Shown piece after piece: positions 173 to 4,125 of a stretch of 14,641 bases of DNA. Location of the stretch: the IMG/VR virus record IMGVR_UViG_2675903658_000001; one strand, 5' to 3'. Within the stretch, counting starts at the first letter, position 1. Every line of letters starts with the position of its first letter. Under the pieces are notes generated by a model. That model was not told the DNA's origin, did not search any database, and saw nothing but the letters and a program-made list of their open reading frames with translations. Position numbers and translations under genes: made by a program. The DNA is from a virus. Taxonomy: Duplodnaviria; Heunggongvirae; Uroviricota; Caudoviricetes.

Positions 173-690
173 CGACCGCTCCCTGATAACAGACCGCCAT
201 CACGCAACTGCAGCCGGAGTTCATCCTGTGCCCCCTTGCGGGCCATGTCATACACCGCCTTCATCAGCTGCGACCCCGCCTGTCCGTTGATACCGTCGTT
301 CTGAATCACCACGTGATTGTTCTGATTAAAATTAATGCCTTCGGCCCGCCGCATCTGCGCCGGACTTCCGGCAGCACCCACATACCCCCCTTCCGCATAG
401 CCCCGCATCAGGCGGTACAGGTTCCCGACACCAATCCGGCTGGTTGCCTCCTTCGTGAAGACAAACTCCCCGCGGTGGACAATCCCCGCTGGCTCATATT
501 TGCCACCGGTTCCCGTAAATCCCCCGGTCGCGAAATGGAAGTTCGCCGCCGCAGCCTGAATGGCTGTACCGCCTGACGCTGATGCGCCGCCACCGGTAGC
601 CCCGCCAATGGCGCTGCCGATACTCCCGACAATCCCCACCATTGCCTGCTTAAGCAGAATTTCTGTCATCATGGATTTTTGTCGTGACAT
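169..690 (-). pseudogene. Tape measure protein H, C-terminal fragment (173-aa ORF equal to the last ~170 residues of H); likely remnant
   Basis: Six-frame ORF 169..690; the protein aligns with the C-terminus of the full H at 5796..8375 at roughly 93% identity, with no indels (1-675 colinear with 5628-6302). The ATG at 690-688 lies inside the 95-bp repeat and has no obvious Shine-Dalgarno. Confidence 0.7.
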
Positions 691-770
691 AAGAATAATT
701 ATCTATAGTTGATCTTCGTAACGCTCCCGCAGCTCCGCAACTCTGCGGGATTTTTTTATTCTTTTTACCC
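676..770 (+). repeat. Copy A of a ~95-bp element (candidate sRNA body plus terminator), direct repeat of 3350-3450
   Basis: Aligned by eye to 3350-3450 at roughly 85% identity. Both copies start at TTTTTGTCGTGA and end at GGGATTTTTTTATTCTTTTTACCC, and both begin (on the minus strand) exactly at the GGG-TAA that ends the upstream tail gene. Confidence 0.8.
725..765 (+). terminator. Intrinsic-terminator-like hairpin plus T-tract on the plus strand (copy A)
   Basis: Stem cccgcag (726-732) pairs with ctgcggg (743-749), 10-nt loop, followed by TTTTTTTATTCTTTTT (751-766). Confidence 0.55.
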
Positions 771-3101
771 AATCCGGCTCCCCTGGACAGTCCACTGACT
801 GCCGGTCCCCAGATAACGGGCAGATTTTTCCACCTGTGCCGTGTTCGTGATGCGTTTTTCTGAGAACCAGAATTCAAACTGTACCGTCGGGTCATACACC
901 GCAAGACGCGGGACCGCCGTTATCTGAAAATACCCCGGCGTCAGCTCAATGGTGGCGGGTTTTGCAGGCGCGTTAATCCGGAAGGTGGTGGTCGCAGGTT
1001 CGCCCTGCTGGCCGTAGCTGTTAATGGCCCGCACCGTCAGGGTGTATTCCCCCAGCGGCAGACCACTGAAACGGTGCTCCGTGTCTGCGGTGATGGCGGT
1101 GCTCACCAGACGGCTGTCTTCTCCGCTTCCGCTGGTCAGACGCAGACTGAAGCGCACACCCTTCACCACCCGCGGCGTGTCCCATTTCGCCTGTGCCAGA
1201 TACTGACCGTCAGCTGCACTCACCTCCACCGTCAGGTGCTGCACTGCCGGTGGGATAACGCTGTTCAGGCTGCCTGACTGCGGCTCAAAGCTGGCCCCGT
1301 TATCCACAATGGCTTCTTTTTCCGGTACGTGCTGCACCGCCGTGATGGCGAACGTGCCGTCCGTGTTTTCCCGAATGGAGACACAGCGGAACAGGCGACG
1401 ACGCAGTGACGGCAGGGAGAGTCCCCACACACCGTATGTCTCCACACCATCCGGCAGGGTGCTGACCTGTATCCGGTCAGGCGCGGGGTGTGCGGTGATG
1501 GCCACGCTCGCCGGCTTACCGCTGCCGTTAATCAGATTAACAGTGGCCGTGCCGGTCTCCGGCAGTGTCACCTCCCGGTCCAGCGTCAGGGTACGGCTGG
1601 CGGCATCGATGGACAGGACACGTCCGCCGGTCATGGTCCCGGCATAGTCGTTATCACAGATTTCAATGATGTCACCGGGTGTGTGACGCAGCCCCTGTGA
1701 CCCGAGCGTGAAATCCACCGTCTGCGTTTCCAGCAGTTCGGTCTTTATCACCCACAGCCCGGCACGGTGGGCCTGACCGCGGCTGGTACAGCCGAACGCG
1801 TCCATCTTCAGCAGGTTGCGTCCGTAGCGCAGTATGGCTTCCGGGTCTTCCACCAGTTCCGTGGAGGTCTGCCAGCCGTTCTGCGGGTCGGTGTAATTCA
1901 CCTCCACTGCCGTGTGCCGGTCCTTCAGGGCACTGAAGCTGTAGCGGAAACCCACGCCGTTATCATCCACCACCACATCGCTGTTGGTGTACGGCCACAC
2001 CACATCCGACGGACGGTCCTGAACGAACGTCAGCGTCTGGCCGTTCCATACCGGCATACAGCGCATCGCAGAGCAGAAATCACTGAGAACGTCCCACGCC
2101 TTACGCTGTTGTGCCAGGTACGCATTAAAGGTCATCCGCGGCTCGGTCCCCCCGAAACCATCCGGGACCGTCTGGTCGCAGTACTGCCCGATGGCATACA
2201 GCGCCCACTTGTCCACATCCGCCGCCCCCAGACGTTTTCCCATGCCGTAGCGCGGGTGAGTCAGCATGTCCCACAGACACCAGGCCGGGTTGTTGCTGTA
2301 TGCCGGTTTCAGGCTGCCGTCCCAGATACCACTGTACGTGCGTTTTTCCGGGTCATAGTTTGACGGCACCTGGATGATGCGACCGCGGATATGGTAGTTC
2401 ACCGTCATCTGCTGGCCGCCGAACTGCTCCGCATCCACCTGCAGCCCCACAATGGCCGTGTTCGGGTAGCACTGTTTCACATCGATGATTTCGGTGTATG
2501 ACGACCACAGCGTCTTATTCTGCAGCTGGTCCGTGGTGCTGTCCGCCGTCTCCCTGACCATCCGGATGTTAAAGGGCCGGGGAGGCAGATTATCCAGAAT
2601 CACCGAGGCCAGGAACTGCGAGGTGGTCTTGCCGTTAATGGTGACATCCTTTTCCGTCACCCAGCGGCCATTACGCTGTAACTGAATCAGAATCCGGACA
2701 GAGGAAGGATTACGGTCGCCCTTTGACGTGGTCTGCACCAGTGACTGCACCCCGAAGGTAACCCGCAGGCGGTCAATGTTCGCGGACGTAATGGTGCGCG
2801 TCACCGGTTTTGCCTTCGTCACTTCCACGCCCAGTCCGGTTTCAGCTCCGGAGGACTCAAAGCCTTCCGGTGGTGTCTGCTCCTGCTCCCCGGCACGCCA
2901 GACCGCAGTCACACCGTGTATCACGGGATTACCGTCCGTGTCCGTCAGCGGGGTTTTGTTCACCAGAATACTCTGCAGTCCCTTCACCGGACCTTCTATC
3001 GGTCCCTCACCAATCGCATCAATCACACTCATCATCTGCGTGGATTTGAGATTATCCTTCGCCTCACGAGGCGTGTGTGCCTTACCGCCACCTTTTCCCA
3101 T
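765..3101 (-). CDS. J: Tail tip / host-specificity protein J, N-terminal ~765 residues only; C-terminal receptor-binding part missing
   Basis: 778-aa ORF starting [22 protein letters not shown], matching lambda J residue for residue over much of its length as I recall it. RBS AGGGGAAGG 4 nt upstream. Similarity ends after ...RYLGT, then ~12 unrelated residues and a stop at the repeat junction. Lambda J is about 1132 aa. Confidence 0.85.
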
Positions 3102-3204
3102 ACAGCCTTCCCCTGAATAAATTAACCGCCACTTGCCATTCCGTACAGAAGTCGGATATCCTTCGCCCGAAAAGCATGAAACACATTTCTGCCATGCTAA
3201 AGAG

Positions 3205-3240
3205 AAACCCCGGTATCAGCAGATACCGGGGTTTTCTTTC
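3205..3240. terminator. Bidirectional intrinsic-terminator-like hairpin in the I-J intergenic insert
   Basis: Perfect 10-bp stem ccccggtatc (3208-3217) / gataccgggg (3222-3231) with loop agca, flanked by AAA on the 5' side and TTTTCTTTC on the 3' side, so it is followed by a U-rich tract on both strands. Confidence 0.65.
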
Positions 3241-3306
3241 ATGCCCACCGATAATCCTGTTGGTTAAAACCGGTAATGGCATAAAAATTCTGAATATCTT
3301 CACATT

Positions 3307-3334
3307 TTCACAAACTGACTGTGGCGCGTATAAT
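3307..3334 (+). promoter_or_regulatory. Near-consensus sigma70 promoter, antisense to the tail operon
   Basis: -35 TTCACA (3307-3312), 16-bp spacer, perfect -10 TATAAT (3329-3334); predicted start near 3341. It lies in the AT-rich insert, not in coding sequence. Confidence 0.55.
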
Positions 3335-3340
3335 TTCTCT

Positions 3341-3440
3341 GCGTTAATTTTTTTGTCGTGATATAAGAATAATTCCTTACACTTAATCTTCGTAACTCTC
3401 CCGCAGTTCCTGTCCGCGATCACTGCGGGATTTTTTTATT
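3341..3440 (+). ncRNA. Candidate ~100-nt small RNA, antisense to the 3' end of gene I
   Basis: Runs from the predicted start to the intrinsic terminator: 9-bp stem tcccgcagt (3399-3407) / actgcggga (3422-3430) then TTTTTTT (3431-3437). No plausible ORF. The body is conserved in the second copy at 676-770. Confidence 0.45.
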
Positions 3441-3450
3441 CTTTTTACCC
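3350..3450 (+). repeat. Copy B of the ~95-bp element, direct repeat of 676-770
   Basis: See copy A. Here the element abuts the stop codon of I (TAA at 3447-3445 on the minus strand). Confidence 0.8.
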
Positions 3451-4125
3451 CTGCCGCCCGATAACCACGACCTTTCCGCCCCCGCCTTCATCACGGGTGC
3501 TGATGTCCTGGGATATACGGCGGGAGCCAACCAGCATTTCCCCGTAAGGCACCGGCATCGGGTTCCCCTGGGCAATCATGTTATCCAGCGAGGAAAAGTA
3601 CGTGTTCTGTCTGCCGTTATCCGTTGCGCGGTAATCCGGTGTTTTTGCCTTCGGGGCCAGCATCTGGGCCACACCGCCCAGTATCATGCTGGCCCCCAGT
3701 GAAAACAGCATCGTGGTGGCAGAAAAACCGCCGGCACTCAGGGCTGTACCCCATAACACCATCGAGGCACCGGCCGTGAAGAAAGAGCCCACGATGGCTG
3801 CCGCCCCCAGCACAATCTGCAGTCCGCCCTTTCCGGCTCCGGCCAGTCGCGGCACAATGTGGATGACCGTTCCCTCACCCAGCTGTTCGTGAAGACGGGC
3901 GTACACCGCCTCCGGTGCCGTGTCATCACCGGCAATACGTATCTGGTACCAGCCTTCGTTCATCTGACGGCGAAAGCCCGGCACCTGTAACGACAGGGCA
4001 CGGATGGCTTCCGCTGCCGTGTTCACATACAGGCTGAGGCGGCGGCCAAATCGTTGCAAATCCCCGTGAAGGCAGATGCGTGCCAGTGGCGGTGACGCCA
4101 GACAGAATGCGTTCGTCGTTGCCAT
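3445..4125 (-). CDS. I: Tail tip assembly protein I (ubiquitin-like N-terminal domain family)
   Basis: 226-aa ORF starting MATTNAFCLASPPLARICLHGDLQRFGRR, lambda I-like. The start lies ~100 nt inside the 3' end of K in another frame, as in lambda. Confidence 0.9.
   Translation of the reverse strand: MATTNAFCLASPPLARICLHGDLQRFGRRLSLYVNTAAEAIRALSLQVPGFRRQMNEGWYQIRIAGDDTAPEAVYARLHEQLGEGTVIHIVPRLAGAGKGGLQIVLGAAAIVGSFFTAGASMVLWGTALSAGGFSATTMLFSLGASMILGGVAQMLAPKAKTPDYRATDNGRQNTYFSSLDNMIAQGNPMPVPYGEMLVGSRRISQDISTRDEGGGGKVVVIGRQG

Follow-up and report, generated by a model that had tools for sequence, protein, structure and literature searches.

What occupies the space between the tail genes I and J of the lambdoid prophage in IMG/VR record IMGVR_UViG_2675903658_000001? 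The 14,641-nt stretch analysed here in its full length (the window) is the late region of this prophage, carried on the minus strand and spanning the genes from the major capsid gene to J, with the tail genes H, M, L, K and I between them. The gap between the last two genes is 343 bp long (3102-3444) and has a GC content of 0.36-0.43 compared with ~0.6 in its flanks, while the corresponding gap in lambda measures 60 bp (15445-15504). These values agree with a first-pass annotation made from the sequence alone, in which the gap was described as 343 bp and AT-rich and the lambda gap was given as about 60 bp. The annotation had further proposed a prophage regulatory RNA with its own promoter, antisense to the late operon, which it could not match to any named RNA. 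The proposal is backed by homology and synteny with PasB, a small RNA (sRNA) known from enteropathogenic Escherichia coli (EPEC), and the locus, promoter and terminator identify the RNA as PasB. With a probability of about 0.8, the plus strand of 3280-3437 is a self-contained RNA moron with a pasB gene, whose product would work in the lysogen as a base-pairing sRNA that acts in trans and depends on Hfq. The insert has the marks of a moron in the Juhala/Hendrix sense: it is extra DNA of deviant GC content with its own promoter and terminator. The pasB unit (~3280-3437) takes up only the right 40% of the gap.

PasB (E2348CN_0006) is one of five "pathogenicity-associated" prophage sRNAs detected through the ligation and sequencing of interacting RNAs (RIL-seq) in EPEC O127:H6 E2348/69 (Pearl Mizrahi et al. 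2021, PMC8550237). It is listed there (Table S6) in prophage PP6, on the minus strand of NC_011601 at 1466343..1466261 (83 nt), with the northern probe AATCCCGCAGTGATCGCGGAGCT. In the E2348/69 genome this position lies between a tail assembly gene (plus strand, ending at 1466255) and gpJ (plus strand, starting at 1466496), antisense to both, and the RNA ends 6 nt from the I stop codon. The layout in the window is the same. In an alignment of the two gaps the promoter, the terminator and the position beside the I stop codon all match, and the reverse complement of AATCCCGCAGTGATCGCGGAGCT fits window positions 3410-3432, within the terminator, except for its first three bases (a comparison by eye). 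Because locus, layout, promoter and terminator are shared, the window RNA is a pasB gene, and 3355-3437 is the counterpart of the published 83 nt. The E2348/69 and window RNAs (the beta and alpha alleles) also have in common their orientation, the terminator stem with U7, a 5' U-run and an AU-rich single-stranded body with the motifs CUCCUUA and AAUCUU. They differ in the diverged body, in which both seed stretches are changed, and in an extra 178-bp segment upstream of the window promoter, the L-module. A promoter-to-terminator layout read from raw sequence can therefore recover an experimentally validated prophage sRNA gene.

Expression, Hfq dependence and RNA partners of PasB are known from the beta allele. 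PasB gave a northern band of the expected size and its stability was Hfq-dependent, with log2 fold changes (wild type vs delta-hfq) of -6.8 under activating and -2.4 under non-activating conditions, its level being higher in the non-activating condition (PMC8550237). It took part in 37 RIL-seq interactions, and in every chimera row examined it was the second RNA, joined via its 3' 25-48 nt; the partners in these rows include bfpB, bfpI, perB, ler, ftsZ, the tolC 5' untranslated region (UTR), fabR, ffh, glk and yrdD-smg (PMC8550237). A survey of PasB distribution (Zhu, Shabalina and Storz 2026, bioRxiv 10.64898/2026.05.13.724894) reports 1158 hits. There PasB is described as often the sole Pas sRNA in enterotoxigenic (ETEC) and enteroaggregative (EAEC) E. 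coli and in strains without pathovar markers, as frequent extraintestinally, and as embedded in a phage structural-gene operon, with a seed proposed just upstream of the terminator. These two papers were the only ones returned by a literature search for PasB, and a full-text literature search with the alpha sequence and the terminator sequence gave no match.

The promoter of the window unit is the near-consensus sigma70 promoter of the first-pass annotation, on the plus strand and antisense to the late operon; it matches the consensus at 11 of 12 positions (Table 1). The two strands of the entire 14.6-kb window hold three promoter-like sites in all, each of them inside the gap (shuffled sequences lead one to expect 6.7 +/- 2.5). 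TTCACA-16-TATAAT is the best of the three and the only strong one in the window; the other two are weaker. The region from -55 to -1 is 93% identical between the window and E2348/69, and across alleles the promoter is better conserved than the RNA body. The inverted repeat directly upstream of the -35 is a candidate regulator site, and both of its half-sites are kept at every pasB locus with a promoter, even where the -35, spacer and -10 diverge (Sakai Sp11, L151, L207). It fits 9 of 10 core positions of the CRP consensus TGTGA-N6-TCACA. The repeat is centred at about -44.5 and not at the canonical -41.5. CRP is thus only a candidate regulator, and catabolite control of pasB through this repeat is speculation. 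At two loci (L005, a contig titled Asaia platycodi, and L038 from IMG/VR) an insertion right after the pasB -35 parts the upstream repeat from the remaining promoter; the inserted element is presumably IS629/IS1203. This E. coli prophage sequence also turns up in a Streptomyces contig (L007); like the Asaia contig it is short, and both are probably contamination.

Table 1. Features of the I-J gap and its surroundings in the window (coordinates in nt of the window).
Feature	Coordinates	Strand	Remarks
Inverted repeat TCTGA-N6-TCACA, candidate regulator site	3289-3304	+	directly upstream of -35; centre ~ -44.5
pasB promoter	3307-3334	+	-35 TTCACA 3307-3312, 16-bp spacer, -10 TATAAT 3329-3334; 11/12 match
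PasB alpha primary transcript (predicted)	3341-3437	+	97 nt; from alignment with E2348/69 PasB; start G3341 deduced from -10
Single-stranded seed-equivalent region	3374-3396	+	UCCUUACACUU 3374-3384; UCUUCGUAAC 3387-3396; aligned to beta 37-47 and 50-59
Intrinsic terminator, likely Hfq-binding 3' end	3399-3437	+	predicted fold: 9-bp stem, then U7 at 3431-3437
L-module	3102-3279		178 bp, between J start codon and pasB unit
Tail assembly gene I	3445-4125	-	Pfam Lambda_tail_I 6.5e-16; PHROG tail assembly protein matches; stop codon 3445-3447
Tail tip gene J, truncated	765-3101	-	778 aa, ends inside second Ig-like domain; start 3101
Second PasB-type copy, promoterless	666-757	+	covariance model 85.2 bits; at breakpoint truncating J
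Candidate gap open reading frame, 61 aa	3176-3361	+	
Candidate gap open reading frame, 66 aa	3082-3282	-	hypothetical in ASU11
Candidate gap open reading frame, 113 aa	3082-3423	-	

The transcript expected from this promoter contains no AUG within its 97 nt (3341-3437), in line with the ~100 nt free of open reading frames (ORFs) noted at first pass. It ends in the intrinsic terminator described there (a 9-bp GC stem plus T7), in which UCCCGCAGU (3399-3407) pairs with ACUGCGGGA (3422-3430). One detail needs correction: the U-tract was said to overlap the last codons of I, and the T7 in fact ends 8 nt short of the I stop codon. The only T-run that touches the stop codon is a second, shorter one at 3442-3446.

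Conservation of the unit was followed in two samples. The first comprised 124 loci with 32 unique RNA variants from IMG/VR, phage and genome records; its IMG/VR part was picked by a pattern that included the upstream repeat and the -35, which makes promoter conservation in it circular. The second, of 80 loci, was picked through the I protein to avoid this circularity. Absence of the promoter and terminator from related inserts had been named at first pass as a possible objection to the RNA. In the I-protein sample the PasB terminator lies at most 600 nt from the J start in 72 of the 76 loci with a recognisable J start (in the remaining four it is found further out, behind sodC), and the canonical promoter is present in 66 of these 72 pasB loci. 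Common to all family variants are the promoter, GCGUUA plus a U-run at the 5' end, A(A/C)(U/C)UCCUUA, (A/G)AUCUU, and the terminator, with a core of CCCGCAG/CUGCGGG (7 bp) and a U-run that is U7 in most; the window has the motifs in the form CUCCUUA and AAUCUU. Of 25 unique variants, 23 retain this core stem and two have A-C as its outermost pair. An RNAalifold consensus of the 25 variants consists of the terminator stem alone, with the rest single-stranded. A covariance model built from these 25 variants, the window among them, scores the window at 93.5 bits by construction; Sakai Sp11, which is outside the model, scores 74 bits and lambda has no match.

Between alpha and beta, identity is 72% over 83 nt and 63% in the body between U-run and terminator, while the terminator and U-tail are identical at 25/25 nt. 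A BLAST search of one against the other finds the terminator only. When the survey settings were re-run on the window, word size 28 gave no hit, and word size 11 gave a 25-nt hit at the I-J locus with 40% query cover overall, below the survey's 50% and 75% filters. Alpha was therefore probably not counted in the 2026 survey. When the two bodies were counted separately among 5426 complete E. coli genomes, alpha occurred in 800 (616 records at >=99% identity) and beta in 945 (946 records, of which 39 are exact E2348/69 sequences and 871 fall in the 95-99% band). Sampled records of this band are a 1-nt variant that corresponds to the "PasB-2" of the survey, position 27. The beta count is close to the survey total, which fits alpha having been missed. 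Alpha is a divergent allele of a known sRNA: its kind has already been named, and the allele itself appears to be uncatalogued. The PasB locus is more diverse than published, with at least two common alleles that have the same promoter and terminator and a different pairing region. Alpha is nearly as frequent as beta and invisible to the published search settings.

The difference between the alleles can be read against the known partners. Five RIL-seq partner fragments of E2348/69 were scanned with 12-nt windows and exact-complement searches, which were used in place of whole-molecule RNAduplex as the latter gave unrealistically long duplexes. Beta has perfect complements to tolC (10 nt, UCUUCAUUUG; the target stretch starts 5 nt before the annotated start codon of tolC), fabR/yijD (11 nt, UCCUUCACAUU; the target stretch just precedes the yijD start codon), ler (9 and 8 nt, UCCUUCACA and UCUUCAUU) and yrdD (7 nt, CUUCAUU). 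The chance of a 10-11 nt perfect match in fragments of such size is <0.01 by our own estimate. All of these complements fall at RNA positions 37-59, in agreement with the seed proposed by Zhu et al. 2026. In alpha, UCCUUCACAUU is replaced by UCCUUACACUU and UCUUCAUUUG by UCUUCGUAAC: the seed region is present and single-stranded, but the beta sequence is not conserved. This loss of seed conservation marks the window copy as a divergent allele and still allows its membership of the PasB family.

As the alpha seeds differ from those of beta, a largely different target set is predicted. Judging from the five targets, alpha would keep the promoter, the 5' end and the Hfq-binding terminator and have a different target specificity. 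A more far-reaching reading is that alpha is a seed-swapped sister of PasB, in which the same regulated promoter and Hfq scaffold serve different mRNAs in ~15% of complete E. coli genomes, among them extraintestinal strains like ATCC 25922, missed by the survey; we hold this tentatively, at somewhat less than even odds. If it is true, the I-J gap would be a cassette site through which prophages exchange sRNA targeting modules. If alpha is expressed, many commensal and extraintestinal E. coli would hold an uncharacterised Hfq-dependent regulator with targets unlike those in EPEC. In practical terms this amounts to little more than a further accessory sRNA for annotation.

The proposed sequence of events is as follows. 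In the lysogen, host RNA polymerase with sigma70 would read pasB from its own promoter, against a silent late operon. The RNA (~97 nt, or 83 nt with the published 5' end) would terminate 8 nt before the I stop codon, and Hfq would bind the terminator hairpin and U-tail. The AU-rich single-stranded stretch at 3374-3396 would then base-pair with mRNAs, in many cases on or close to a ribosome-binding site or start codon, and the pairing would alter their translation or stability.

A number of observations weigh against this account. Expression, Hfq dependence and partners are documented for the E2348/69 beta allele only, and alpha lacks the 9-11 nt matches of beta to tolC, yijD and ler; the 7-8 nt matches left are at chance level. 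The published RNA-seq-based 5' end falls at 3355, and the -10 predicts a start 14 nt further upstream, at 3341. An end at 3355, after the U-run, could be a processed end or an imprecise boundary, and the CUGCGUUA block around 3341 is conserved even in alleles with a differing -10, which mildly favours an RNA that includes the 3341 start. The comparison of homologous inserts for covariation, suggested at first pass, found no compensatory change in the terminator stem among the 25 variants, and hence no covariation support. The suggested covariance-model search did not help either: Rfam 15 gave no family for the whole window at the gathering threshold and only chance-level matches on 3000-3550 at E <= 10, and it has no model for PasB. 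The best sub-threshold match was STnc310 (19 bits vs a cutoff of 40), on the L-module hairpin. Finally, in enterohaemorrhagic E. coli (EHEC) Sakai, where pasB is present in Sp11 and Sp12, Hfq crosslinking and analysis of cDNA (Hfq-CRAC) showed no peak on pasB (Tree et al. 2014, PMC4104026). The growth condition used was one with low PasB in EPEC, and the authors note a bias against terminator-proximal sites (PMC4104026).

The absence of covariation, and alpha seeds that miss the known PasB targets, would also suit a unit without regulatory function, that is a decaying moron remnant or a transcriptional insulator. Promoterless copies (666-757 in the window; L194 and L199 behind sodC) and the insertions in the promoter of L005 and L038 point the same way. 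Such an inert unit is nevertheless very unlikely, given that an intact alpha promoter and terminator persist almost unchanged in 800/5426 genomes, that the promoter is more conserved than the body, and that the sister allele is abundant and Hfq-bound in vivo.

The window gap as a whole was found by BLAST in 1662 of the 5426 complete E. coli genomes, annotated in none, and also in Shiga toxin (Stx)-converting and other lambdoid phages; the gap sequence of ATCC 25922 is 100% identical. Its left part, the L-module, is present in 1446 of these genomes, only at the I-J site, and 1442 of 1451 matching records are >=99% identical. It contains a small hairpin (3173-3198) and a second, very stable one whose core (3208-3231) is preceded by an A-run and followed by a T-run; 3166-3242 folds at -31.9 kcal/mol (z = -7.3). 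The shape of the 3208-3231 hairpin could fit termination in both directions, and a terminator or insulator is the simplest reading of the L-module. With a weak promoter-like site on the plus strand at 3133-3162, a second small RNA of ~70 nt (~3169-3240) is possible. Two other origins of the L-module were considered and rejected. It is not a dispersed repeat or miniature inverted-repeat transposable element (MITE), as a distant blastn search finds the I-J context only, with a median of one copy per genome. Nor is it a remnant of a sodC moron: homology to the sodC region stops at the pasB promoter boundary (~3280).

Neither E2348/69 nor any other S-type gap has the L-module. In this type, to which many Stx phages also belong, 85-95 nt lie upstream of pasB, and in these a sense-strand hairpin CAGGCAYCC...GGRUGCCUG is followed by UUGUUUUUG (L004, L002, L131). 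The stem of this hairpin is retained, as one C-G pair changes to U-A in a compensatory way, with U-G as the intermediate. The lambda gap (L129, 846-905) contains a hairpin with a sense-strand T-run only. With their T-runs, both the lambda and the S-type hairpin look like an intrinsic terminator placed shortly before J within the late operon.

In the S-type, L-type and sodC-type arrangements alike, pasB is antisense to the tail operon and lies 5-8 nt from the I stop codon. This constant placement raises the question of a cis-antisense role, in which PasB would pair after induction with the I-J spacer of the phage late mRNA and lead to RNase III cleavage or an effect on I/J expression; in a variant, the late transcript would titrate PasB and convergent transcription would shut off the pasB promoter. 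PasB is fully complementary to the I-J spacer, so that an additional function of this type is possible, and the sense strand has a terminator-like hairpin upstream of J in S-type gaps and in the L-module, with an analogous one in lambda. As the principal function, however, cis-antisense regulation appears unlikely. The late operon is silent in lysogens, where PasB is detected, and the partners recorded in the RIL-seq rows examined are trans-encoded core and virulence mRNAs. PasB lies outside the I coding sequence and, in the window, ~230 nt from the J ribosome-binding site. A variable body on a conserved scaffold also favours trans targets, since a cis RNA remains complementary whatever its sequence.

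That the gap encodes a small protein instead of an RNA is hardly credible. ORFs do exist (Table 1), one of them annotated in ON416862, and a 32-aa ORF is annotated in PV340549. The three gap ORFs of the window have no Pfam or PHROG match, cross terminator hairpins and the promoter, and are missing from S-type gaps that keep pasB, and no obvious ribosome-binding site was seen. On the tail-operon strand, phage annotations inside the gap read "hypothetical protein" in PhiR12_1 (L003, 1658-1756) and ASU11 (L001, 1533-1733). One of these is antisense to pasB and the other runs through the L-module hairpin; both are probably spurious.

The first-pass annotation had likened the RNA to the anti-sRNA sponges of EHEC prophages, a comparison that holds only in form. 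AgvB and AsxR (Tree et al. 2014, PMC4104026; RF02702, RF02703) are, like PasB, prophage-encoded, Hfq-associated, expressed in the lysogen and convergent to phage genes, with a conserved 3' part and a variable targeting part. This formal likeness of a conserved 3' scaffold with a variable body, together with one RIL-seq chimera that joins PasB to the region beside pasA (PMC8550237), is what would speak for a sponge that titrates a core sRNA. However, AgvB and AsxR are 51-60 nt long, lie at the moron site downstream of PR' and each form one of a convergent sRNA pair, whereas the window RNA measures 83-97 nt and lies in the I-J gap. RF02702 and RF02703 (conserved 3' region ~42 nt) gave no match to the window at the gathering threshold or to 3000-3550 at E <= 10. 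AgvB and AsxR sequester the core sRNAs GcvB and FnrS (PMC4104026), while the PasB partners in the RIL-seq rows examined are almost all mRNAs (coding sequences and 5' UTRs) and include no core sRNA. A sponge function is thus a distinctly remote prospect, and a base-pairing sRNA directed at mRNAs is preferred.

Another Hfq-bound RNA is found in the I-J gap of an EHEC prophage. EcOnc24 (Sakai NC_002695.2, 2166694-2166753, plus strand; Tree et al. 2014, Table S2) shares the Sp11 I-J gap with the pasB copy of that prophage and is antisense to the tail genes; the Sakai genome-version coordinates were checked via the PasA/EcOnc51 site. Its peak (homologues EcOnc22 and EcOnc23) covers the J-proximal hairpin upstream of the pasB promoter, a segment that is replaced by the L-module in the window. 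EcOnc24 is an RNA adjoining PasB yet distinct from it. Identity of PasB with an EcOnc sRNA was rejected, as EcOnc24 precedes the pasB promoter and neither in Sp11 nor in Sp12 is pasB covered by an EcOnc peak.

The window contains a second PasB-type copy at the breakpoint that truncates J (Table 1). The body of this copy is identical to IMG/VR variant L030, no promoter-like site lies upstream of it, and the end of an I gene, with its stop codon, comes after it (region 666-770). From 771 onward the sequence is 100% identical to internal J, and 1-675 matches the M gene and the tape-measure C-terminus at 100% identity. J is cut to 778 aa compared with an intact 1230 aa in ATCC 25922; its Pfam domains are FNIII-A_GpJ, Phage-tail_3 and Ig_J, with Ig_J_second covered over profile positions 2-64 of 105. 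Neither breakpoint junction was found in the 5426 complete E. coli genomes or in IMG/VR, and the breakpoint reflects either an assembly chimera or a rearrangement between two tail modules that is specific to this strain.

The I-J site also receives protein-coding cargo. sodC (Pfam Sod_Cu 8e-32), antisense, is found in the I-J gap of L194, L197, L199 and L200 (IMG/VR) and of the Stx2a phage L218 (LC567840.1, 1801-2514). The sodC moron of the Stx2a phage Stx2_EH1846 resembles pasB as an AT-richer insert with its own promoter and terminator, antisense and at the I-J site; the window differs in its non-coding RNA cargo and has no sodC. Gifsy-2 sodCI sits in another tail gap, between a Lom homologue and L, without pasB. 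In the sodC phages, sodC and its terminator are followed directly by pasB on the same strand. The pasB promoter is kept in L197 and L200 and replaced in L194 and L199, and PasB would therefore be produced in the latter two only by read-through from sodC.

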